A DNA stretch of 20,000 bases from an uncultured virus (IMG/VR IMGVR_UViG_3300048762_000476). Lineage: Duplodnaviria > Heunggongvirae > Uroviricota > Caudoviricetes. A model generated the notes under the pieces. It made no database searches and had not been told where the DNA came from. It was given only the letters and a program-made list of their open reading frames with translations. This document shows positions 2,760 through 20,000 of this stretch, piece by piece. Position 1 is the first letter of the stretch. Each line of letters starts with the position of its first letter. The stretch lies in IMG/VR virus record IMGVR_UViG_3300048762_000476; one strand, written 5' to 3'. The translations under genes were made by a program, and so were the position numbers.

Positions 2760-3353
2760 CTAGGGCTGATTGGAGCGCACGACGCTTTCGAGATGCTCTT
2801 TGATCAGCGTCGAGGCCCGCTCAGCGATGTGCTTGCTCCACGCGTGCGCGCGCGCGAGCGCGACGTCGAACGGCACGGCTTCTCTCTCGGCGATCCCGCC
2901 GACGTCCTCCTCGGTGAACACGCACCGGATGAGTTCCGCCGGGGGGCTGGCGAGGATCTGGAAATCGACGAGCACGCGGGCGACGCGACCGACAAGGAAG
3001 TCCTCGCCGTCGACGTCGCTCGGCTCGCTGATCTCGGCGTAGACGGGGTAGAGGCCGTCGCCGACGCCGGTGGATACGGCGACGGCGGTGCCGAAGCGCT
3101 CGTCGGGTGCGCCGCGTTGCGGTCCGAGGATTCCCGCGCGCTCGCGCGAGCTTTTCGCGACCCAACATGCCTCGCGCGAGAACGGCAGCTCAGGAGCCGC
3201 GTGCTCGCGCATGTGGTTGAGGTCGGGGCACCCTGACGGCAAGAGGTCGTCGAGGTTTGTGGTGGTTGAGTCGAAGGTCGCGAGCACCGCGGGATCGGCG
3301 AGCACGACGCACGCGCTGTCGATCGCGAGATGCCCGATGAGGACTCGCTTCAT
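2760..3353 (-). CDS. DUF4241-like protein, 197 aa
   Basis: AGGAG RBS; IGHLAIDSACVVLADP and STGVGDGLYPVY match the DUF4241-type VDSG...D / SGxGDGxYPVY motifs. Confidence 0.7.
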   Translation of the reverse strand: MKRVLIGHLAIDSACVVLADPAVLATFDSTTTNLDDLLPSGCPDLNHMREHAAPELPFSREACWVAKSSRERAGILGPQRGAPDERFGTAVAVSTGVGDGLYPVYAEISEPSDVDGEDFLVGRVARVLVDFQILASPPAELIRCVFTEEDVGGIAEREAVPFDVALARAHAWSKHIAERASTLIKEHLESVVRSNQP

Positions 3354-3466
3354 GGTTCTCTCCTGTCGGTAGGGGTGGATGCCCGTCCAGCGGCACGCAG
3401 CAGCACGGCGGCGGCGGCGGTCGTGTCCGGGGAGGGCGTTGGGCGGCCGGCGTGGATCGCGTGCGC

Positions 3467-4281
3467 TCAGCGCAGCGCGATCGTGTCGTCCCAGGTGGTG
3501 GCGTGGACTCTGCGAGCGAGGTCGACGAACCCACGTGGCGCCCGAGCGTCGGCCGTGTGGGCGACGAGGTCAGTGGCGTGGGCGCTCAGCTGGATCTCTG
3601 CTCGCCGGATGCGCGGCTGGGAGCGCCGCCGACGGCGCTGGCGGCGATCAGGTAGACGTCTTCGTCCCCGAGCTGGTAGTGGTACGGGATGCCGCTGCGC
3701 AGCGCGGCGGTGATCTCTGCTAGGTCAGCGCCGTCAACGTCCCCGAGCGCGTCAGCGATCTCCTCGTATGAGAGGAAGCCGGCGCGCACGGTGCGCTCGG
3801 GGGCAAGGTCCGCTTGGTGGTCGACGATCAGGCGAAGGATCGCGGGCTCGCTCGCTGTCGTAGCCGCAGCGCCGAGCCCTGCGTGCGCGAAGACGCTGCG
3901 TAGGCGGTCGAACTCTTCGTCGGTCTCGTGGTTCGCGCTCTGCTCGGTCTCGGCGTTCCATCCCTCGATGAGCGCGAGGAGGCAGCGCTCGACCTGGGCG
4001 CAGACGGCGAGCCCGATCGGCGCTTCAACCTGCACGTAGGACGCGCCTGCGTTTTTGGTGTGGAAGTCGACTTCGACGACGCGCACGCCGCACCACGGGC
4101 GCTCGTGTCGCGCGGAGCATTCGCGGTCGAAGTAGTCGATGATCGAGACGACGACGCCCTTGGCGCGTTCCTCTGTGGTGAGGATCTCGGCTTCGATCCA
4201 GCGCTCGAGGTACCGGATCGCCTCGCGGTAGTTCAGCGGTGCGGTTGGCTGCGCGCGGGTAGTTGATGGCATCTCAGCCAT
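3467..4281 (-). CDS. Hypothetical protein, about 271 aa, with an apparent -1 frameshift near 3600-3630
   Basis: AAAGGAG RBS before ATG 4281 (MAEMPSTT). The ORF stops at 3586, but the frame EIQLSAHATDLVAHTAD...WDDTIALR* continues to TGA at 3467. The span is 815 nt (3n-1). Confidence 0.65.
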
Positions 4282-5587: not shown

Positions 5588-6417
5588 CAGGTCTGCGCGA
5601 CGAGCCCGCGCACGAGCCCGGCGAGGTCGCTTCGGGCGAGCGCACCGATGAACGCTTGGCGCCCGGCAGCCTCTACGCCGTGGCGCTCGGCGGTGTCGAG
5701 CAGCAGTTCGCCGAGGCGCGTCGCGGTGAGGACTCTCGAGTCGCTGACGTGACCGGTTGTGGGGGTGCCTTCGGCGGCGAGGTCGAGCCAGCCCTCGACG
5801 GTCCCTGCGAGCTCGTACAGAGCGTCGTGCTCGGCGTCGTTGCTGTCGCCGGCGAGCGCGCGACGCGCTGGTGCGAGTGCGGCTGCCAACTCGGTCGCGG
5901 TGATGAGCAGCGCCGGGGCTCCGTCGGGCGGCGTCTCGGCGCGAGCGACGGCGGAGGTGATCATGTCGAGCATGCCCTGGAGGCGCTGGTCCTCGTCGTA
6001 GCGCAGGACGCCGAACACGAGCTGTGGCGTGGGCAGGTCATAGTGGGTCGCGTGTGTCTCGACGCGGTATGACGGCTTGCGCTCACGGTCGATCGGTGGT
6101 GCCGCGTGCTCGAATACCTCGCCGCAAAGCGTGATCGAGCAGTAGCGCGGTTGGAAGTTGCACGCGATCGCGAACAGCGTCGTGTTGGCCGGCGCGCGGC
6201 GGACGTAGAGGGTGCGGTCGGATGTGGTGATGCACTCGACGTTCTCGGCTCCGGGGCCGGCTGTTGCGGCGCGCTCGATTCGCTCGAGCAGGTGGGACTC
6301 GACCTGACGCGCGAAGATCGGCTTTACCGCCTGGTAGTCCGGGCGCGGGCTTCGTGCAGCGCGAGCAGCGCCGCGCGCCTGGGCGCGCGAAAGCAGTTGC
6401 TGTGCTTCGGTGTTCAT
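5587..6417 (-). CDS. Hypothetical protein, 276 aa
   Basis: AAAGGAG RBS; globular-looking sequence; contains the motif LAGDSNDAEHDAL. Confidence 0.8.
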   Translation of the reverse strand: MNTEAQQLLSRAQARGAARAARSPRPDYQAVKPIFARQVESHLLERIERAATAGPGAENVECITTSDRTLYVRRAPANTTLFAIACNFQPRYCSITLCGEVFEHAAPPIDRERKPSYRVETHATHYDLPTPQLVFGVLRYDEDQRLQGMLDMITSAVARAETPPDGAPALLITATELAAALAPARRALAGDSNDAEHDALYELAGTVEGWLDLAAEGTPTTGHVSDSRVLTATRLGELLLDTAERHGVEAAGRQAFIGALARSDLAGLVRGLVAQT

Positions 6418-6623
6418 GGCGCTCCTTTCTTGGGCCAGGGCGGAGAGCCCGGCCGCGAGCGGTCAGGGGTATGGACGACGGCGCAGGCAGCACCTCGGGT
6501 GGCCGGTGCGCCGATGCTCTTGTGAGCAGCGAGGCTGAGCTCAGGCGCAGATGTACTTGTGTGGGTGCTCGCCGGGCCGGTGGTCCCAGCAGGGCGCTTG
6601 GCCCTCATGGATGCAGGGTGAGT

Positions 6624-6652
6624 ACGCGCGGCGGCACGCGGCCGCCGCGCGT
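6624..6652. terminator. Perfect 12-bp inverted repeat immediately downstream of 6661..6879
   Basis: ACGCGCGGCGGC-N5-GCCGCCGCGCGT; no U-tract, so terminator function is inferred. Confidence 0.5.
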
Positions 6653-6660
6653 GTGATCCG

Positions 6661-6879
6661 TCAGGCGGTGCGCGCGACCGCTAGGCCGCCGCGCTGGCGT
6701 CGGTCGAGCAGGGTGCGAACGGCCAGCCGCGCCTGCGAGGGCGTGAGATCCTCTCGCGGGCGGCCGCCGAGCTCAGCGATCTGCGCCAGTTCCGCGGCCG
6801 ACGCGCGTGGGCTGAACCCGGATTGGGCGCCGTAGCCGCCGAGCGGCCGCCGGATGAACGGGGTGTAGATGGTCTGCAT
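6661..6879 (-). CDS. Small hypothetical protein, 72 aa
   Basis: AAGGAG RBS; helical C-terminal half (ASAAELAQIAELGG...LTPSQARLAVRTLL). Confidence 0.7.
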   Translation of the reverse strand: MQTIYTPFIRRPLGGYGAQSGFSPRASAAELAQIAELGGRPREDLTPSQARLAVRTLLDRRQRGGLAVARTA

Positions 6880-7109
6880 GGCTGCTGCTCCTTCTCTCCG
6901 GGCCGGGCCCGGCGATTCGAATGTGTGCCGCGCGCGAGGCGGGCGGCATTGATGGAGACCGCGCCGCAGGCGCGGTCAAGACGCGAGGACGGCGCTAAGC
7001 CGCCCTCATGGGTGCTGACGGTTGGCGCTAGACGCGCAGGGTCCACGCGGTGAGTCCCGCGCGTTGGTGTCGGCGGCCGTGTAGCGCGTTGATTCCTCGC
7101 GCCTACGGG

Positions 7110-7158
7110 CCCTTGAAACCGACGAGGCGCCCGCGCCCCTGGGAGAGGGCCGGGCTCG
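7110..7158 (-). terminator. Intrinsic-terminator-like hairpin, family copy 1
   Basis: Minus strand GAGCCCGGCCCT-CTCCC-AGGGGCGCGGGC followed by GCCTCGTCGGTTTCAAGGG. Confidence 0.6.
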
Positions 7159-7220
7159 CTAATTTGCTGCTCCGCCAGTCGCAGGTCCTGGCATAGGGTC
7201 GTGGCGGCTGACGGCGCTCA

Positions 7221-8189
7221 TCAGCTCCCGGTCGGGCGGCCGAGGTAGCACGCAAAGCGCGGACACATCACGTTCGCGCACCTCCATCCCGCGGCCTCCT
7301 CGCAGCACGCTGCGTGTGCCGGCGCGCCGTCAGGCGCGCTCTCGCGCAGCTCGATGAGGTCTTCGCCTCCGAGCAGCTTCGGCTCGCCGGCACACGCCGG
7401 GCAACACGAGGGAAGCGGGCCACGCTCGAGGATCTCCAGCACCGCACCGAGCGTGGACGCATAACGCAGCGGCAAGCCGCACGTGGAGTCGCCGTTTGCG
7501 ATCACCGCACACGCCCCGGCGCGGAACGCGGCCGTGGCGGCCTCTGAGGCATCGCCGACCGGGTTGACGCTCCCGTCCGCGGCGAGCTCACCGGTGAGCG
7601 CATGCGTTGCGAGGCGCTCCGGATCGATCTGGCCGTCGGCGGCGAGAACGGCACAGGCGATCGCGAGCTCGACGGACGGCCCGACCAGCGAGGCCGTGTC
7701 GGAGGTGACGCTCACGTTGATCTGCCCTACTGGCAGCCCGTACCCACTGCTCCTGAGCGCGTAACTGAGACGCTGAGCGAGACTCGCAGCCGCTGTGCGC
7801 CCGATGCCCTCGATCGTGAGGCGCGGCGAGGCGCGCCTGACGACGGCGTCGACGGTGACCGGACCGCCCGCGTCGGCGGCGAGCGCGCGTGCAACACCGA
7901 GCTGTGTGCGGCGCGAGTGCGACGGTGCCGGGCGTTCGACGGCGTGTCCGGTACCCTTGAGGTAGGCGAGCGTCCCGGTCGTAGGGATGTCGGCGATCGG
8001 GTGTGACCAGATCGGTGGGCGCGCCGTGATGTCGTCGTCGTCGGCACCAACCCACCAATCGGCGTGCCAGTCGCTGAAGACCGCGGCCCAGCGGTTGCCT
8101 GTTTGCCACATCCAGCGGTCGGCGCGAAGCGGCGCGGGAAGATCCTCGCGTTCGTGCTCGCTATTGGCGTAGATGATCGTGTTGTTCAT
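7221..8189 (-). CDS. ComM/YifB N-terminal Lon-like (ChlI-type) domain protein without the AAA+ ATPase; Trp-rich N-terminus and Cys-rich C-terminus, 322 aa
   Basis: PVTVDAVV...LTIEG...RLSYALRSSGYGLP...INVSV...ELAIACAVLAADGQI...GELAADGSVNPV parallels the ComM N-domain. No Walker A. GAAAGGA RBS. Confidence 0.8.
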   Translation of the reverse strand: MNNTIIYANSEHEREDLPAPLRADRWMWQTGNRWAAVFSDWHADWWVGADDDDITARPPIWSHPIADIPTTGTLAYLKGTGHAVERPAPSHSRRTQLGVARALAADAGGPVTVDAVVRRASPRLTIEGIGRTAAASLAQRLSYALRSSGYGLPVGQINVSVTSDTASLVGPSVELAIACAVLAADGQIDPERLATHALTGELAADGSVNPVGDASEAATAAFRAGACAVIANGDSTCGLPLRYASTLGAVLEILERGPLPSCCPACAGEPKLLGGEDLIELRESAPDGAPAHAACCEEAAGWRCANVMCPRFACYLGRPTGS

Positions 8190-8308
8190 GAGCAGGGTCC
8201 TTTCTGCAGCGGTTGAGCTGCGATGGGATCGGGCCGCGGGGTTCGCGGCGGGTGCTGCCGGTTGGCGGCACGGGAGGTGCCCGGCGGGGCGAGGGCGTAG
8301 CGCTTCAT
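8186..8308 (-). CDS. Possible 40-aa leader peptide/small protein
   Basis: AAGGAG RBS before ATG 8308; stop overlaps the next start (ATGA). The sequence is Pro-rich and not clearly protein-like. Confidence 0.3.
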   Translation of the reverse strand: MKRYALAPPGTSRAANRQHPPRTPRPDPIAAQPLQKGPCS

Positions 8309-8504
8309 GGGCGGCTCCTTGGTTGATGGGATGGCCGATGCCGGCGGCGGCTGTGGTGTGTGAGGACGCGGCGCTTGCCGCTGGCGACGGCTGTCTGGGC
8401 GCCGTGACGAATGCGAGCGATGTGTCGATGTCGCGGCGGGCGCCCGATCCCGCTGTGGGGTCGGGCGCTCCGCTCGCGTGTCGCTTAGCGCTCGCCGTGT
8501 GGGG

Positions 8505-8765
8505 TTAGAGCTGGCGCAGTTCGGTAGTGAGCTTGAGCTCGTTGCCGAACGCGCCAGCGCGACCGAGCAGCGCACGGAACGCGGGCATGCGGGCGAGCTC
8601 GCTGGCACCCGCGCCCGCGGCGGCGGCCTGGTCGACGAGCTTCTGCAGCTCGGTGTGCGCGCGAGCGAACGAGTCGAGCGCGCGTGTGTGGCGCATGGAG
8701 GTGCGCTCCAAGCGAACGCCGTTGTGGTGGGGTGACTCGGTCCAGCTGGTCATGTTGGAAGTCAT
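8505..8765 (-). CDS. Small helical hypothetical protein, 86 aa
   Basis: GAAGGAG RBS; coding-like codon usage. Confidence 0.75.
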   Translation of the reverse strand: MTSNMTSWTESPHHNGVRLERTSMRHTRALDSFARAHTELQKLVDQAAAAGAGASELARMPAFRALLGRAGAFGNELKLTTELRQL

Positions 8766-8819
8766 TTGAATTTGGCTCCTTCGGTTTCAGTGATGGCACG
8801 TGTCCGCCGCGCCGACGAC

Positions 8820-8865
8820 CCCTTGAAACGACGAAGGCCCGCCCCCGGGGGTAGGGGCGAGCTCG
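8820..8865 (-). terminator. Intrinsic-terminator-like hairpin, family copy 2
   Basis: Minus strand GAGCTCGCCCCT-ACCCCC-GGGGGCGGGCCTTCGTCGTTTCAAGGG; tail nearly identical to copy 1. Confidence 0.65.
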
Positions 8866-8908
8866 GTGACTTGCGTGCGCGCGAGGCGCGCGGCAGGTCG
8901 GGTGTTGC

Positions 8909-9097
8909 TCAGACGCCGGGCAGGTACGTCGCGCGGCGCAGCAGTTCCGAGAGCGGGTCGTGCAGGTTGTGGCTGACGCCGCGCGCCGCGCCACGGCATG
9001 TGAAGAGCTCGCTGAGGTCCGGCTCGACGTTTCGCGGGCCGCCAATGTCCTGCTGGGCGGTCGTGCTGTTGCTAGTGGTTGTCTCTGTGGCTACCAT
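8909..9097 (-). CDS. Small hypothetical protein, about 62 aa
   Basis: GGAG RBS before GTG/ATG (9100/9097); lies between two terminator-like hairpins. Confidence 0.5.
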   Translation of the reverse strand: MVATETTTSNSTTAQQDIGGPRNVEPDLSELFTCRGAARGVSHNLHDPLSELLRRATYLPGV

Positions 9098-9154
9098 CAC
9101 TGGCTCCATTCACTTGTGGTTTGGAAAAGGGCGCCGCTGGAACCGGCGCTTGTA

Positions 9155-9197
9155 GGACGCGAAAGAGCCCGGCCTCCGCGAGGAGGTACCGGGCTCG
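9155..9197 (-). terminator. Intrinsic-terminator-like hairpin, family copy 3
   Basis: Minus strand GAGCCCGG-TA-CCTCC-TCGC-GGAGG-CCGGGCTC-TTTCGCGTCC. Confidence 0.65.
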
Positions 9198-9331
9198 ATC
9201 GTTTTTGCGGCCTCAGTCGGCCGCGTGGCTTGTCTCATTCAGCGTGCGAGGAGCCACCTCGCAACGGACGCACCCCCACGTCAAGGGGCGCGTTTCGACA
9301 TCAGCTCGCTCACGAGACTCCGGCGGCGGCG

Positions 9332-9940
9332 CTAGGGCGCGGTGCGCTCTGAGGCTTCGCGGGCATGTGTTTCCTCGATGATCTCGCTGAGGCGGCGCGG
9401 CTCGAAGCCGAGGTCGCGCTCGATCGGCAGGGGCGAGCGGAAGGTGGCGAGTTCCTGCATCGAGGAGTCGCCGAAGCTGCTGCCCGGCAGCGGGCCGATC
9501 TGAAAGCCGGTGAGTACCAGCTGCCCGCTGTAATCGGTGACGGCCACGACGTAGTAGACGAGCCCGCTGAGCGGGTGAAACAGCCTGATCTTCGCGATCA
9601 CCCGCTCGCTGCCGGGCAGATCCTCGTAGGTTGGGAGCCGGTCCTCGGGGCGCAGGTAGCGGTAGGCGGGGCCGCGAAAGCGCCGGTCGGGCTGCTGGTA
9701 GGCCGGGGAGAGCGCCGGCGCGGGGAGCAGCTCGGCGGCCTCGAGCAACCGCACGAGCTGCCCGCGTGATTGCTGTCCGTCGAACGGGGCGCCCTCATCG
9801 GTGCCGGGGGCCGATAGCGCAATGCCGAACGCGGTGTAGAACACACTCACGTTCCCGGACGCTGTTGTCAGTGTCGTCTCGCGGATCGGGACGCCACTGA
9901 CTCGCAGCTCCCGAACCTGTTTAGCTGGTGTCTCAGGCAT
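9332..9940 (-). CDS. DUF2958 domain protein with N-terminal extension, 202 aa
   Basis: KIRLFHP...YYV...G...FGDSSMQEL...LPIERDLGFEP matches the DUF2958 pattern; AAGGA RBS before ATG 9940. Confidence 0.75.
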   Translation of the reverse strand: MPETPAKQVRELRVSGVPIRETTLTTASGNVSVFYTAFGIALSAPGTDEGAPFDGQQSRGQLVRLLEAAELLPAPALSPAYQQPDRRFRGPAYRYLRPEDRLPTYEDLPGSERVIAKIRLFHPLSGLVYYVVAVTDYSGQLVLTGFQIGPLPGSSFGDSSMQELATFRSPLPIERDLGFEPRRLSEIIEETHAREASERTAP

Positions 9941-11397: not shown

Positions 11398-11691
11398 TCA
11401 GACGGGCGCGAGGACCCGGTAATCGACCATCAGCGCGCGCAGCGCGTCGTCATCGAGCGGCTCGTCGAACGAGGTGAGGTCGTCCCGGTCGGCGTACATG
11501 TCGACTTCCTCGCCGGCGAGGACGTGCGCCGTGTAATCGACACTGACGCCGCTCGTGTCATTCCAGTGAATGGTCGTCTTGGTCACCTTGACCCCGTCGA
11601 TCTCGCGCTCACGGGTCTCTTCACCGAGGATGCGTGTTCCCGGTACGGGCATCGCGTCCTGCCTTCCTGTAGTAGTGGTGATCTCGCTCAT
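11398..11691 (-). CDS. Small acidic hypothetical protein, 97 aa
   Basis: ATGA overlap with the upstream gene (MSEITTTTG); the N-terminal part of track ORF 11398..12018 is not used. Confidence 0.75.
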   Translation of the reverse strand: MSEITTTTGRQDAMPVPGTRILGEETREREIDGVKVTKTTIHWNDTSGVSVDYTAHVLAGEEVDMYADRDDLTSFDEPLDDDALRALMVDYRVLAPV

Positions 11692-13013
11692 CGCGGCACC
11701 GCGCCCGCGAGTGCCGCTGTGACCGCATCGGGCTGGGGGAGCGCGAGCTGCTCGTGCTCGAGCGCCGCCCACCAGGCGCCGAACGACGGCAGCGCCTTCT
11801 CGACGGCGCCGGCCGGGCCGGCGACCACGAAGGACTCGCGTGTCGGCAGCCGCTCGCCGCGGCGCAGCCGGTAGACGCGCTCGATCCCGTCGTGCGTGTG
11901 TACCGGTCCGAGCGAGCGCACGCGGGCCTCGCACTGCGACCTGGAGCCGTGGGCGAGGATCCGCAGGTCGCGGTTTGCCATGTGCACCTTCAGCGGGTCC
12001 TCCCGCTTCGGCCGCCACAGGCGGCGGACCTCATACACCGAGTGCGCCACCGTGTCGAGGTGCGCCCGGAACCGCTCGACGATCTCAGGGCGCTGCTCGG
12101 CGAGCAGGTCGATCAGCCGCTCGCCGGCGATCAGCCCGCCGCGCGGGTTCAAACACAACGCGCGCCACTCCAACAGCAGCGCTTCGAGCGCGGCCTGCGG
12201 CCGGGTGTCGTAGCGAACAACAATTCGCTCCCTTCCAGCCTTCGAGGTCATGGCAAACGGGCAAAAGAAACACGCCGACTTTGGCCAATCCGCGACGCCG
12301 GTGATCTGCTCGATGTAGCGCCGGCACGCCTCCCGGTCCCATCCCCAGTTGATCAGCGGGAACTCGGCGACCCGGTGCGGCGTGTCGTATTCGCTGGCTT
12401 GGCGGGCGCGGGCCTGCTCGCCGATCTCGAAGCCGAACGCGAGACGGCCGGGCATGTGACGCTGGCAGTCATCGGCGCGGCGCTGCTCACCGATCTCAAA
12501 GCCGAACGCGTGCCGGACCGCCAGCGGCGCGAACTGCTCCAGGTAGGTGTCGATCACCCATCCCTTGAACTTCATGCTGCACCGGCGGGTGCCGCCGACC
12601 TGTGGGACGGTCCCGGCGACGGTCAGCTCATCAGAGAGCTTGTAGGCGCCATCGAGATAGGCCCGGGAGGGTTCGGTGGTGTCTGAGAGGACACGGATCC
12701 CTTCGGCTTGTCGGCTGCCTGCCCGGGCGAGTTGCGCGTAACGGACGCCGGCGGCGCACAACCTCGGCAGGATGTGTTCTTCGACGAGCTTCCCGGTGCG
12801 CGGCCACTCATCCCCGGTCATCGCGGTCACGATGAGCAGCTGGTCGAGTGGAAAGTCGCGGCTCGAGGGATCCTCGAGAAATCTCAGGAGGACGGCCGTG
12901 CTATCTACCCCCAAGCCGTAGCTCAACACGACTTGGGCGCCGGACGGCGAGCCGACATCACCGCTGACCCGCGGCTGGCGGGGGCTGGCGGCAGGGGGAC
13001 TGGACGTGCTCAA
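11688..13013 (-). CDS. PP-loop (adenine nucleotide alpha-hydrolase) PAPS-reductase/DndC-like protein, about 441 aa
   Basis: SYGLGVDST (PP-loop variant), RRCSMKFK, GFEIGE..RA, FPLINWGWDREAC, KSACFFCPF. TTG start 8 nt after AAAGGAG. Confidence 0.75.
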   Translation of the reverse strand: MSTSSPPAASPRQPRVSGDVGSPSGAQVVLSYGLGVDSTAVLLRFLEDPSSRDFPLDQLLIVTAMTGDEWPRTGKLVEEHILPRLCAAGVRYAQLARAGSRQAEGIRVLSDTTEPSRAYLDGAYKLSDELTVAGTVPQVGGTRRCSMKFKGWVIDTYLEQFAPLAVRHAFGFEIGEQRRADDCQRHMPGRLAFGFEIGEQARARQASEYDTPHRVAEFPLINWGWDREACRRYIEQITGVADWPKSACFFCPFAMTSKAGRERIVVRYDTRPQAALEALLLEWRALCLNPRGGLIAGERLIDLLAEQRPEIVERFRAHLDTVAHSVYEVRRLWRPKREDPLKVHMANRDLRILAHGSRSQCEARVRSLGPVHTHDGIERVYRLRRGERLPTRESFVVAGPAGAVEKALPSFGAWWAALEHEQLALPQPDAVTAALAGAVPR

Positions 13014-13157
13014 GGGGCACGCTCCTTTCATCGGGACGTGGTGTCGGCGCAGCGGTGGTGGGGTCTGGCTGCGGCGAGCGGAGTTGGAGGGCGTCGAGCG
13101 GCCGCGTCGCCCTGTCAGCGACTTGCTTCGCAATCACCAGCGGACGCGCCGTGCATC

Positions 13158-13390
13158 TCACGCGGCTTTCTCGGTCCGGGTGCCCTTGGGCGTGTAGATC
13201 TCGACGCGCGGCCGGTCGCTCTCTGTCCAGCGCCACGTGCGGCCGGTGTCCTTCAGGCGAAGCGCCAGCTCTTCCTCCTCGTCGTCGTACGCGAAATCAG
13301 GCGCGCGGCTCATCCGCGCGCGCAGCTGCGCGATCGAGAGGTGCGCGAAGCGCCTGGGGGCGCTGTGGGATCAGTACCCGTTTGTGGCAT
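13158..13390 (-). CDS. Small hypothetical protein, 77 aa, with an apparent -1 frameshift in a C5 run (plus-strand 13356-13360)
   Basis: GAAAGGA RBS. One extra C gives MPQTGTDPTAPPRRFAHLSIAQLRARMSRAPDFAYDDEEEELALRLKDTGRTWRW...EKAA*. Confidence 0.7.
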
Positions 13391-13493: not shown

Positions 13494-14462
13494 TCAGGCC
13501 GCAAGCGCGCCTGGGGTGCTCTGGCCGATGTCGGCGGCGAGCGCCGGCTCGGCCGCGAGGATGAAGTCGCAGGCGCGCTGCGCTTGGCTGGCGGCGAGAA
13601 CTAGCAGCTTCGGGTCCTCGCGCAGTTTGCTCGTCCATGAGGCGATGTAGGCGGCGGTGTTGATCTCCAGCGACGGCACGGCGATGTCGGCGATCGCGCA
13701 CAGAAACGCGGCGCCCATCTCGGCGACGAGCTCCTCGCGCGAGTACCCGGGCCCGGCGAACTCGCTGATCTGCATGATCTCCTTGCGGGCGAGCCGCCGA
13801 CGATGCCCGGTGGCGTGGACGTGCTCGTGGTAGGAGGTCGCGTAGTAGGCCTCGGAGCTCTCGAAGCACTCTGGCTGCGGGAGCCCGACCGTGTCCGTGG
13901 CGGGCCGGTAGTAGGCGCGTGAGCCGCCGTGAATGACGCGCGGCGGGTCGGGCATCTTCGCCAGCAGTGAACGCGCGGCCTCGAGCGGCGCGAACGCCTC
14001 CGGGGCCGGCGGCGGCGGGATCCGCTCGTCAAGGCCGTCGCACTGCTCGGTGTTGAATACGTTGTAGTGGCGCAGCAGCGGGATCCGCCTGGGGCGCTGC
14101 TCGTCATCGTCATCTGAGGGAAGCAGAAGCTGCTTCCAGAAGACGATCATCGTGCTCGTCTCGCCGCGGCGCACCGCACCGCCGAGCGCGATCGCCTGGC
14201 CAAAAGTCACCCAATAGGGTGAGGTGTAGCCCTCGGTGGCGGCGGTGAGGTCGAGTAGCAACGTGTTCACGCCGCGGTAGCGCTTCTTGGAGGCGAGGTT
14301 GAGATGGGTGTAGCGGTCGCTGTCTGTGTGGCGCGCGACTCGCCAGGGCCGCCGCCAGGGGACGACGCCCCGCTTGAGCGCGGCCAGGATGCGGCCGGTC
14401 ACCTCGGCGTAGATGTCGCGCGACGGCCGACCGGAGCGCTTTTTCGCGCGGGTAGAGCTCAT
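13494..14462 (-). CDS. ardC: ArdC family antirestriction protein (ssDNA-binding N-domain plus zincin-like/MPTase domain), 322 aa
   Basis: VPWRRPW, YRGVN, WVTFGQA..GGAVRRGE, VFNTEQCDG, AYYRP..D.V.LP, HEHVHATGH, YSREELVAEMGAAFL, AYIASW; AAAGGAG RBS. Confidence 0.93.
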   Translation of the reverse strand: MSSTRAKKRSGRPSRDIYAEVTGRILAALKRGVVPWRRPWRVARHTDSDRYTHLNLASKKRYRGVNTLLLDLTAATEGYTSPYWVTFGQAIALGGAVRRGETSTMIVFWKQLLLPSDDDDEQRPRRIPLLRHYNVFNTEQCDGLDERIPPPPAPEAFAPLEAARSLLAKMPDPPRVIHGGSRAYYRPATDTVGLPQPECFESSEAYYATSYHEHVHATGHRRRLARKEIMQISEFAGPGYSREELVAEMGAAFLCAIADIAVPSLEINTAAYIASWTSKLREDPKLLVLAASQAQRACDFILAAEPALAADIGQSTPGALAA

Positions 14463-14583
14463 GTGGTTCTCCTTTGTGAGATCTGCGCTCCCCGTGGCGC
14501 AACGGAACAGCCAGATGGCAGTCCGTGCGGGCGGCGAGGCGTGTTCGGGCGCCTTGCGGCGAGCCCTGTGCGTTACGGTGCGC

Positions 14584-15000
14584 TCAGGCGGCGAGCAGCG
14601 GCGAGAGCTCGCTGCCGCCGTGCCGGCGCCTGGGGGCGCGCTGTGCGCAAGCGGCGTTCACCAGCACCACCAAGGCGAGGCCGTGAGCGGCGATACGGTC
14701 GACGTGCAACTCGACGGCGAGCTCCCGCGCCTGCTCTTTCCGCACGCCGTCCCTGGTGAACAGCGCGTCGGCAAGCGCACGGCCCTCGCTCTCACCACGC
14801 ACGTCGCTGAACCGCCGGGCGATGAAGCGGTATATGCCGCGACGCTGCGTTTTGAGCTCACGGATCGCGCGAGCGAGTTGTGTCTCGCCGACCGGCTGGC
14901 CTGCGAGGAATCTCTCGAGCAGCTCGCGTGCCTCCTTGCCGCGCTCAGCGCGAGCGCGCTTGTACACCTCGGTCGCGACCGTCTCGTTGGTGTCCTTCAT
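14584..15000 (-). CDS. Helical hypothetical protein, 138 aa
   Basis: GAAGGAG RBS before ATG 15000. Confidence 0.75.
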   Translation of the reverse strand: MKDTNETVATEVYKRARAERGKEARELLERFLAGQPVGETQLARAIRELKTQRRGIYRFIARRFSDVRGESEGRALADALFTRDGVRKEQARELAVELHVDRIAAHGLALVVLVNAACAQRAPRRRHGGSELSPLLAA

Positions 15001-15229
15001 GTCCGACTCCTTCCGTTTCGATTGGCGCACCCTTTAGGCAGTTCGGCGTGGGCCGAAGCGCAATTGGTGCGAGGTCTTCGAGCCGCGCACCCCCACAGGG
15101 GGGCCGGCACATCTGGCGCAGCTCCTACGTCCCCCGTTGGGCGTGAGACTCGAGGCCCGCCCAGAGCGGGGTTGACGCGAACACGACCACCACTCGGTAG
15201 ATCGCGGACAGCTGCGAGTCATTCGGCGT

Positions 15230-18184: not shown

Positions 18185-19441
18185 CTAAAGGACTTCACCC
18201 ATCGCACGTCGGAAGTCCCGCTTGGCTTTCTTGAACGTCTCGGAGGACGCGGCGAGCTGATCCCCGGTCGGCCCGCCCTCAAGCGCAGAGGCCAGGTCCA
18301 CGCCTGACCAGCCCGCGCCGCAGCCGTGACAGCGCCACCCGTAGCGCCCGACGCTGCACGAAGCAACCAAGTCCTCGTGTGAGGCTGAGGGACAGTTGAT
18401 GTTCCCCCTCGCGGGCAGGTCGATCCCGGCGAGCCGCTTGAAGTACACCTCCGGCGGGATCAGCTTGTACGCGTCGTAGCTCAAACGGTGAGGAACGCTG
18501 CGCCGCTGCGCCCGCGCGCTCGGCGGGTCGCACAGATCCCCGACGAGCAGCTCCGGCGAGTACGCTGGCAGCCACAGGTCAATGCGCGCGATCCGCGCAT
18601 AGCGTCCCGTCTTGCCGTTCACCGAACCGGCGAGGCGCAGCACGCGGGCGCGCTCCGCGCACTGCCGGTCAGCGAGGTGGACCCGCTCGCCTTCACGGTC
18701 CAGAACGCCGAGGGCGTGGATCAGCCGGCGGTTCGTGCGCTCGATCCAATGCACCGGTTGGCGGTCGGTGATGACCTCCCCGCTATCCGGGTCGCGGTAG
18801 CCCACCAGCCGCGTGCGGCCCGTCTCTGCGGTCGGCTGGCGTACTTCCGCGGGGTTACGGATCACACGCCCATCCGCCAGGGTGATCGTCCTCGCGTACA
18901 GCGGCCGGGAGAGCAGCCAGTAAAGGTGCCTGCGCGGCTGCTCTGAGCCGCCGGACTCGATCTCGATATGCGCAGGCTTGCCGGCCAGCAGCCGCTGCAC
19001 CTGGCCTGCCTCGTCGGGCTCGTCGATGTCGACCCACGCCCACTGGCTGTAGTGCACGAACTCCTTGCCGGCGCGCCGCTCGCTACGCGGCGCGAGACCG
19101 ACAAACAACTCCTGCCCCTGCTGGTGGTGGCGTGCCGCGAGCGCCGTCAGTGGGGCAGGCCAGTCCGGGCCGGCGATCCCACCCCCAGCCAGGAAGTGGT
19201 CGGGGTGCCGGCGGGTATAGATCGCAAGCTCACCGTTGCTGTCGCGGTGCCCAGCGGCGAGCTCCACATAGCCTCGACTACTCCTGTGTAGGAAGCCGAT
19301 GTGAATCTCGCGATGCCGCGACGCCGGGTACTTCCGGTCTACCTCGCGGCCGTCAGGCAGACGGACGTTCATCGGGAGGGTTGGCTCTGCGCGCTCGGCG
19401 CGGCGTGCTGCCGGCGGACGCTCAGCTGTGGCTGTTGCCAT
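18185..19441 (-). CDS. RepB-type DNA primase (AEP superfamily) with C-terminal CHC2 zinc finger, about 418 aa
   Basis: WVDID (motif I), SGG...HLYW (motif II), RVLRLAGSVNGK; CPSASHED...WRCHGCGAG; AAGGAG RBS. Confidence 0.8.
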   Translation of the reverse strand: MATATAERPPAARRAERAEPTLPMNVRLPDGREVDRKYPASRHREIHIGFLHRSSRGYVELAAGHRDSNGELAIYTRRHPDHFLAGGGIAGPDWPAPLTALAARHHQQGQELFVGLAPRSERRAGKEFVHYSQWAWVDIDEPDEAGQVQRLLAGKPAHIEIESGGSEQPRRHLYWLLSRPLYARTITLADGRVIRNPAEVRQPTAETGRTRLVGYRDPDSGEVITDRQPVHWIERTNRRLIHALGVLDREGERVHLADRQCAERARVLRLAGSVNGKTGRYARIARIDLWLPAYSPELLVGDLCDPPSARAQRRSVPHRLSYDAYKLIPPEVYFKRLAGIDLPARGNINCPSASHEDLVASCSVGRYGWRCHGCGAGWSGVDLASALEGGPTGDQLAASSETFKKAKRDFRRAMGEVL

Positions 19442-19466
19442 CACGCTTCTCCTTCCGCTCGCGGGT

Positions 19467-20000
19467 TTATGCGGCGAGCCGCTGAGGCTCTGCCTGGTTC
19501 TGCAGTGCGGCTCGCTGCTGCTCAGCGAGGTCAATCACCCGCTCGAGCCATGCCGCGTTCCTTGGGTCGCTGCCGCGCTGACGGTCAGCTTCAGCGGCTC
19601 TCAGCGCACGCTCTGCATCGCGTCGCACCTGGGCGACCTCGGCCTCCTGCGGCCTGCGGGGAAACGGGCTCTCCGGGTCGTGGCGTTCACCCACTTCGCT
19701 GTTGTGGAACGCGACCTGTGCCTCGACGTATGTGACGAGCACACCGAGCGCCGCGCCGAGGCGCTCTCCAGCCCCGGTGAGGTGCTCCACGACCACGCCT
19801 GTGGGCAAGTCAACGTTCTCGCCCGAAGCGTCACCGTGCTCGGCCGGAATGTCATAGACCGTCCACAGGTTGTTCACGTCGACCGCGATCACTACGGCCC
19901 GGATCTCGCCGTCACTTTGGCGATAGGTGACGCTTAGCTGCACCGGCCTGCCTTCCGGCGCGCCGACGCTCTCCTTGAGGTTGTGGGTTTGCGTGGTCAT
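19467..20000 (-). CDS. Hypothetical protein, at least 177 aa (ATG at window edge)
   Basis: Open, coding-like frame; RBS would lie outside the window. Confidence 0.7.
   Translation of the reverse strand: MTTQTHNLKESVGAPEGRPVQLSVTYRQSDGEIRAVVIAVDVNNLWTVYDIPAEHGDASGENVDLPTGVVVEHLTGAGERLGAALGVLVTYVEAQVAFHNSEVGERHDPESPFPRRPQEAEVAQVRRDAERALRAAEADRQRGSDPRNAAWLERVIDLAEQQRAALQNQAEPQRLAA

Follow-up and report, generated by a model that had tools for sequence, protein, structure and literature searches.

An ATPase-less ComM/YifB-type Lon-like domain between a portable Trp-rich module and a cysteine-rich tail in an uncultured viral record

We analyzed a 20,000-nucleotide stretch of DNA, hereafter the window, from an uncultured virus (IMG/VR record IMGVR_UViG_3300048762_000476; Duplodnaviria; Heunggongvirae; Uroviricota; Caudoviricetes). 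The subject is a single minus-strand gene whose protein consists of an acidic, Trp-rich N-terminal module (N-module), a Lon-like domain of the ChlI family and a short cysteine-rich tail (Table 1). An earlier note, made from the sequence alone, had proposed that the protein is an ATPase-less ComM/YifB relative on a mobile element that acts as a decoy inhibitor of natural transformation or, alternatively, as a repurposed ring scaffold. The open reading frame (ORF) itself is intact and carries a coding signature. In this 70% GC window, the GC content at third codon positions is 0.82 in the frame of the gene versus 0.59-0.69 in the other two frames of the same strand, and neighbouring genes are similar. 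The assigned start agrees with that of the homologues, which are 322-325 aa long and open with MNNTIIYAN or a similar sequence. Two expression signals had also been assigned to the gene. Its own ribosome-binding site is plausible because GAAAGGA sits 8 nt before the ATG. Its own terminator was not borne out: a consensus scan of positions 6400-9400 returned no terminator-like site, and the downstream hairpin has no T-tract and is about as stable as shuffled sequence (z=-0.63).

Table 1. Positions of the gene, its three modules and the annotated neighbouring genes in the window.
Feature	Coordinates	Strand	Details and basis
Whole gene	7221..8189	minus	322 codons plus stop TGA at 7221-7223; ORF list
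Likely ribosome-binding site, GAAAGGA	8198..8204	minus	8 nt 5' of ATG; read from the sequence
N-module, residues 1-95	7905..8189	minus	Acidic, Trp-rich, beta-rich; conservation, predicted fold
Lon-like ChlI (PF13541) domain, residues 97-261	7407..7901	minus	Pfam, ComM fold match, YifB-nested tree
Cys tail, residues 262-322	7224..7406	minus	CPxC...GEELVELR...APxDAPAH...GWRCxNVxC; invariant Cys; zinc-ribbon-like Cys4
PAPS-reductase-like gene	11688..13133	minus	phrog_424, 4e-11; no Pfam match
ArdC-type anti-restriction gene (ArdcN plus zincin-like metallopeptidase)	13494..14657	minus	Pfam ArdcN 1.8e-31, MPTase-PolyVal 7.3e-33; phrog_7245, 7.1e-77

The protein belongs to a small family. An exhaustive HMMER search of 1.84 billion representative sequences returned 2,093 matches at E<=0.001, nearly all of them ordinary YifB proteins that align at the ChlI part. 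Collecting homologues with the same three-part architecture, as the earlier note had proposed, yielded four full-length proteins of 322-325 aa from large protein collections, which are 96, 57, 52 and 47% identical to the window protein and keep all three modules. We also found a 268-aa relative (P0008) that has the N-terminal domain and ChlI and is without the Cys tail, together with one C-terminal fragment. In an alignment of the five family members, invariant residues are spread across all three modules. Genome, viral and metagenome contigs yielded no confirmed locus of the family when searched by pattern, and tblastn of the whole protein against plasmids returned only two weak matches to the ChlI domain, in Neisseria records. 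A protein identical to that of the window is recorded on 10 contigs, the longest of 232,498 bp, and the longest contig of the cluster with the 47%-identity homologue measures 233,608 bp; contigs of about 233 kb for both hint at a complete element of such size that recurs across samples. The AlphaFold2 model of the whole protein, built from a 97-sequence alignment, has a mean predicted local distance difference test score (pLDDT) of 86.3 and a predicted template modelling score (pTM) of 0.67. The ESM Atlas gave no feature matches for the protein, and its structure rows, which derive from a poor Atlas model, reach TM<=0.5 only.

Several lines of evidence concur on the identity of the central domain. 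Pfam places ChlI at residues 114-230 (E=3.2e-13, 50.1 bits against a cut-off of 27), with Lon_C just below its own cut-off (E 3.4e-4, 20.7 versus 21.1 bits), and the NCBIfam YifB models are matched at model positions 12-141 of 506 only. In structure comparisons, residues 97-261 match the Lon domain of Legionella pneumophila ComM (8rxd_F) with Z 19.9 and an rmsd of 2.6 Å over 163 aligned residues (Foldseek E=1.5e-11), and RadA, Lon proteases, the BrxL C-terminal domain and CalpL rank after it. A sequence match to ComM in the Protein Data Bank (PDB; E=2.8e-9) is gapless and aligns residues 107-235 with ComM 15-143, such that ComM position n corresponds to n+92 in the window protein. The ComM/YifB N-terminal domain that the earlier note had placed at residues ~97-258, for whose bounds it had suggested Pfam, is thus found by Pfam, NCBIfam and the ComM fold match alike.

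The AAA+ module that follows this domain in ComM had been called absent, and we found no trace of it. Neither AAA+ Mg_chelatase (PF01078) nor Mg_chelatase_C (PF13335) is matched in the protein at E<=10; the chain ends 61 residues past the Lon-like domain, and no Walker A motif occurs in its 322 residues. When five full-length YifBs were searched by tblastn against the six frames of the window, only YifB residues <=119 matched (others E>0.1), with no AAA+ remnant. With neither AAA+ module nor Walker A motif, the protein cannot be a helicase. A recent working definition of comM combines PF13541, PF01078 and the Mg-chelatase C domain (bioRxiv 10.1101/2024.02.06.579203), and under it the gene would not count as a comM, since PF01078 and Mg_chelatase_C are absent. 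The likeness to ComM/YifB consists in the N-terminal ChlI domain, by sequence, fold and tree position; unlike ComM/YifB, the window protein has no embedded CxC...CxC zinc finger, does not keep the pore lysines and carries the extra N-module and C-terminal Cys tail. RadA/Sms offers a second comparison, as it shares the Lon-like ring domain (Z 17.1-17.5) and a Cys4 zinc module, and the domain list in PMC11612176 gives RadA as combining a Lon-like domain with a zinc module. However, RadA runs from an N-terminal zinc finger through a RecA-like ATPase to a C-terminal Lon domain, whereas the window protein has no ATPase and a different order, and its sequence is nearer to ComM than to RadA.

Residues with known roles in other Lon-like domains are not conserved in the family. 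The DNA-contacting lysines of the Lon-ring pore in L. pneumophila ComM are described as K43, K46 and K64 (PMC11612176), and the gapless alignment places A135, A138 and Q156 at these positions. Across the five family members the three positions read A/A/A/R/P, A/A/K/A/E and Q/Q/H/H/Q, and are not conserved as basic. The fold is also that of S16 Lon proteases (Z 14.5-17.9 to several domains; Foldseek E 1e-10 to 1e-8), and Ser172 of the window protein falls at the serine position of the Lon GPSAG motif. These matches, with Lon and CalpL folds at Z 14-18, would be expected of an active ATPase-less Lon-type (S16) serine protease of the LonC or CalpL kind, which we nevertheless consider very improbable. 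The serine is present in two of the five members (the window protein and its 96% relative) and is Gly in the remaining three, the positions matching the Lon GGxKEK lysines (S215/A217 in the window protein) lack a Lys in every member, and the Lon_C score stays below the Pfam cut-off. Here the residues of the Ser-Lys dyad are what we take to be the catalytic ones of Lon, and their positions come from an alignment to LonA chains. The missing dyad and the missing pore lysines together argue against both protease activity and ComM-style DNA threading, and the domain would accordingly appear to be neither a protease nor a ComM-style DNA channel. The Lon-like domains of two defence proteins, the BrxL C-terminal domain and CalpL, have the same fold (Z 16.2 and Z 14.4, respectively). 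Unlike these, the window protein has no AAA+ or SAVED partner, its sequence affinity is to YifB, and neither PADLOC nor PHROGs returned a match for it.

The N-module corresponds to the Trp-rich N-terminal domain of ~95 aa proposed in the earlier note; it contains seven Trp residues and is conserved in the family. It also occurs well beyond the family. Among 163 fetched proteins, 37 carry the module (residues ~4-90), comprising nine family or cluster members and 28 otherwise unrelated proteins in which it forms a stand-alone protein of 85 aa or is joined to unrelated sequence on one side or the other. The partner sequences are often Cys-rich or very acidic, with CxxC pairs in P0011, P0022 and P0143. 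Proteins with the module include P0010-P0026, P0033-P0050, P0074, P0084, P0107, P0143, P0149 and P0164; all 37 are acidic (pI 4.05-5.99), and those that we looked up are all metagenomic. No family reached its curated Pfam cut-off in the 32 module-bearing proteins scanned. Modelled alone by AlphaFold2, the module gives a pLDDT of 87.5 and a pTM of 0.78. The best structural match by VIA was Z 2.5 among 48,161 PDB chains, Foldseek returned no match at E<=0.001 in the PDB and none among the BFVD viral models, and a PDB profile search (best E 0.75) found no solved relative. The N-module is thus a family of its own, and its predicted structure has no known fold and no structural relative found. Searches by tblastn against plasmids and phages and a pattern-based locus search in viral contigs gave nothing. 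A single weak match in genome contigs was discarded as false, as a profile search of the same genome did not confirm it. A word-index profile search with the N-module returned only four proteins, far below the exhaustive search, and is uninformative. Other proteins with the N-module lie on contigs of 47-86 kb.

The Cys-rich tail described in the earlier note is likewise present and conserved. C263, C266, C304, C309 and C314 are invariant in all five family members, and four of them form two pairs at fixed spacing, CxxC (263 and 266) and Cx4C (304 and 309). The same module closes three otherwise unrelated proteins, P0039, P0059 and P0150; both Cys pairs are kept in two of the three, and P0150 is without the first Cys. 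From this pattern we infer that the tail may bind metal in a zinc-ribbon-type arrangement, although a PDB sequence search with the tail found no relative. We considered and rejected the possibility that the tail is the ComM zinc finger: the ComM pattern, CxC...CxC, lies at about residues 345-372 of full-length YifBs, inside the AAA+ domain, and alignments beyond the Lon domain are low-confidence linker matches. P0161 (333 aa), a member of the P0004 cluster, differs from the 325-aa proteins of that cluster by an 8-residue tandem duplication, ELLGGEEL, in the Cys tail. No second copy of the N-module or the Cys tail occurs elsewhere in the window.

Conservation within the family is distributed unevenly among these parts. 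Mean pairwise identity is highest in the Cys tail (65%), reaches 60% in the N-module and is lowest, at 34%, in the first half of the YifB-derived domain. Because the best conservation lies outside the YifB-derived part, this is the opposite of what would be expected for a decaying comM remnant. YifB is represented here by its N-terminal domain only, as might be left of a comM or yifB gene decaying at an integration scar. This explanation is contradicted by the intact frame with coding bias, by homologues down to 47% identity that have the same length and architecture, by the lack of an AAA+ remnant in any frame of the window and by end modules that are portable and common to other proteins, and we regard it as hardly credible. 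As far as can be judged from sequence, the gene is a maintained one and not a decaying comM fragment, since the three modules are retained by all four full-length homologues, at identities of 47-96%.

In an unrooted maximum-likelihood tree built from 66 rows and 111 columns of the domain, eight family rows group as one clade with support 100/96, nested among YifB-type N-terminal domains. Three rows of the tree, P0047, P0018 and P0039, are misaligned non-ChlI sequences on very long branches, and the family clade is independent of them. A single clade within the YifB-type domains fits a single capture of the domain from a YifB/ComM-type gene. The domain is 42-45% identical to full-length YifBs of high-GC organisms, and among full-length YifBs the closest comes from a cluster named YifB [Solirubrobacterales]. 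The sister clade (support 97/86) consists of P0075 and P0079, two RefSeq proteins of 250 and 181 aa from cultured Streptomyces in which ChlI is the sole Pfam domain and which are annotated as "magnesium chelatase domain-containing protein". P0088, the next branch (95/89), has about 165 further residues and no ATPase. DNA composition, the nearest named YifB and the sister proteins suggest that the host is a high-GC bacterium, probably of the Actinomycetota.

A search of PLSDB with the sister protein led to three Streptomyces plasmids, NZ_CP134608.1 (103 kb, circular), NZ_CP086103.1 (318 kb) and NZ_CP108662.1 (180 kb, linear), the latter two typed MOBF. Each encodes one protein of 316 aa (P0300-P0302; WP_311301405.1, WP_228184000.1 and WP_266430189.1) with an N-terminal domain of about 110 aa, a ChlI domain and a short His/Cys tail, and without a Walker A motif. 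These proteins, which are absent from the domain tree, are 39% identical to P0075 and 28% identical over 175 aa to the window protein. They resemble it as ATPase-less ChlI proteins with a three-part layout and a similar size (316 versus 322 aa); WP_109383738.1 and WP_086859844.1 are further Streptomyces ATPase-less ChlI proteins of this kind. They differ from it in the sequences of the N-terminal domain and tail, with BLASTP aligning the ChlI part alone. On each plasmid, the gene occupies the same offset within a conserved one-directional array of hypothetical genes that includes genes for DUF6573, DUF3560, a YgjP-like metallopeptidase, PAPS reductase, ParB-N proteins and orphan or cytosine methyltransferases. 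On NZ_CP108662.1, the only plasmid that we followed further, the array continues directly into transfer genes of the type IV secretion system (T4SS) type, a replication-relaxation protein and a Tad-pilus cluster. The PAPS-reductase-family genes of these arrays have no detectable homology to the PAPS-reductase-like gene of the window. The window protein would be best filed in an unstudied group, the ATPase-less ChlI-domain proteins of actinomycete plasmids. In the literature that we searched, there was no description of a stand-alone protein with a ComM-type Lon domain, no protein inhibitor of ComM and no paper on the product name "magnesium chelatase domain-containing protein" of Streptomyces plasmids.

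The setting of these plasmid genes bears on whether the window protein could take part in the element's own DNA handling, in replication, partition or transfer, as a ring or clamp that holds a zinc ribbon on element DNA. The Streptomyces counterpart does occur among ParB-N-domain proteins and adjoins transfer genes, and zinc ribbons often bind nucleic acid. The Lon-like rings of RadA and ComM are also described as encircling DNA (PMC11612176). Against this role, the basic DNA-contacting pore residues of ComM are not kept, the whole protein and every one of its modules are acidic (the pI is 5.09 for the 322-aa protein; the Lon-like part has 4.86 and the tail 4.84), and the window has no replication or partition gene next to the gene of interest. 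We therefore think such a role unlikely.

The surroundings of the gene in the window are sparsely annotated. There are approximately 22 co-oriented ORFs, almost none of them with a family match, and the minus strand carries nearly all of the ORFs that have support. The clearest neighbour is the ArdC-type gene, 5.3 kb away on the same strand. Its open frame extends over 387 codons from stop to stop, and its closest relatives (73-77% identity) are 327 aa long, so that the true start is probably internal and the apparent overlap with the upstream ORF at 14584-15033 may be unreal. Relatives of this ArdC occur in 3,130 PLSDB records, 1,756 of them typed conjugative, and none is more than 42% identical. 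Co-oriented genes for anti-defence and methyltransferases, together with uncharacterised ones, are reported to be over-represented in the leading regions of plasmids (PMC11541004). Like the anti-defence genes of such regions (ArdA, ArdC, PsiB), the gene of interest is part of a one-directional run that includes ArdC and consists mostly of small genes that could not be annotated; unlike them, it has no origin of transfer (oriT) or relaxase in the same window and no homology to known anti-defence proteins. The earlier claim that the gene sits on a mobile element was not confirmed and has indirect support only: the ArdC gene on the same strand speaks for it, whereas hallmark genes and matches to plasmid or phage DNA are lacking.

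Other features of the window were noted in passing. Within the PAPS-reductase-like gene, positions 12405-12523 hold two 50-nt copies that share 82% identity and are separated by 69 nt; they represent an internal duplication of about 23 codons that stays in frame. A 449-aa minus-strand ORF at 18185-19534 had a marginal PADLOC match to the 'RTasDnaG-like' model of defence-associated reverse transcriptases (DRT; E=0.0011, residues 369-418) and no Pfam or NCBIfam match; it may carry a primase-type motif. Two further minus-strand ORFs matched phrogs of unknown function, namely 2760-3569 (phrog_5209, 7.5e-8, with a sub-threshold match to DUF4241) and 13158-13370 (phrog_31172, 2.5e-6). We rejected a reading of the window as a defence island, as it contains no PADLOC system and only the single match at E=0.0011. 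Rfam returned nothing in the window, and its repeats are low-identity, GC-rich matches only.

Taken as a whole, our tentative preference, to which we assign a probability of roughly 0.45, is that the gene encodes an accessory protein of an uncultured, high-GC, probably actinobacterial element of conjugative type, in which a motor-less scaffold blocks a host factor. Of the two roles offered in the earlier note, the repurposed ring scaffold fits best. The Lon-like fold is described as forming planar hexamers in RadA and ComM (PMC11612176). In the proposed mechanism, the protein would act as neither an enzyme nor a DNA motor; the Lon-like domain would be a platform for multimerisation on which the N-module and the zinc tail are displayed in several copies. 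The N-module and tail could then bind and block a host factor, or sequester it, as the element enters a cell or becomes established there. Each of the two is an independent module that unrelated proteins also carry, which suggests that target specificity resides outside the Lon-like domain. The host's handling of incoming single-stranded DNA, by YifB/ComM and its partners, would be one candidate target among several.

The decoy favoured in the earlier note is a specific case of this motor-less scaffold. Here the protein would co-assemble with host YifB/ComM or RadA, or compete for a partner such as the nuclease YraN, and branch migration on incoming single-stranded DNA would thereby be blocked; we consider both the decoy itself and this effect on branch migration doubtful. 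Several points are in keeping with it. A YifB-type gene is the source of the domain, which shows the 42-45% identity to high-GC YifBs given above; it retains the ComM Lon fold and has lost the pore lysines, as a poison subunit might; and it travels with an ArdC anti-restriction gene. ArdC is described as acting in recipients on incoming DNA (PMC7213743), ComM as having a protein partner, YraN (bioRxiv 10.1101/2024.02.06.579203), and other mobile elements as hindering transformation, by AbaR insertion in comM and by silencing in Legionella. However, three of the four interface residues named for ComM are not conserved in the family, E22 alone being kept, as D/E. The decoy also leaves unexplained why the N-module and tail occur in many proteins that have no Lon-like domain, and the best-conserved and most widely shared parts of the protein lie outside that domain. 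Moreover, natural transformation is not known from hosts of this kind.

A number of observations weigh against the motor-less scaffold of a conjugative-type element. The Lon-Lon interface of ComM is described as small and non-specific, with hexamerisation that needs ATP and DNA (PMC11612176), which also counts against the decoy; given so weak and ATP- and DNA-dependent an interface, self-assembly of the window protein is an assumption. The 20-kb window contains no relaxase, T4SS, integrase, replication or virion gene, and its DNA has no match in PLSDB or the phage DNA collection. Searches of IMG/VR, PLSDB, phage records and species-representative genomes recovered neither the family nor the N-module. 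Since only ChlI is shared with the Streptomyces plasmid proteins and the neighbouring genes of the window are not homologous to theirs, the parallel is one of architecture and setting. Lastly, purifying selection on the gene would be read from protein conservation only.

A wider and quite unlikely extension of these ideas is that conjugative elements of actinomycetes have made motor-less rings from host YifB/ComM that inhibit the handling of single-stranded DNA by ComM, YraN, DprA and RecA in recipients, with the N-module as a general host-targeting domain. If this were true, these proteins would be the first known proteinaceous anti-ComM factors, and the N-module would be a new general-purpose host-targeting domain of such elements. 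Many bacteria for which transformation is not known have a conserved YifB/ComM, and a mobile-element protein that consists of the ring domain without the motor could provide a natural probe of the role of YifB/ComM there, provided that this pathway is what it targets.

In conclusion, our findings define an unstudied group of ATPase-less ChlI proteins on actinomycete conjugative plasmids, labelled in databases only as "magnesium chelatase domain-containing protein". They also point to a Trp-rich domain of 85 aa with a confident predicted fold and no structural relative, which recurs in many metagenomic proteins. Both the ChlI group and the Trp-rich domain are targets for structure determination and for the genetics of plasmid establishment in Streptomyces.

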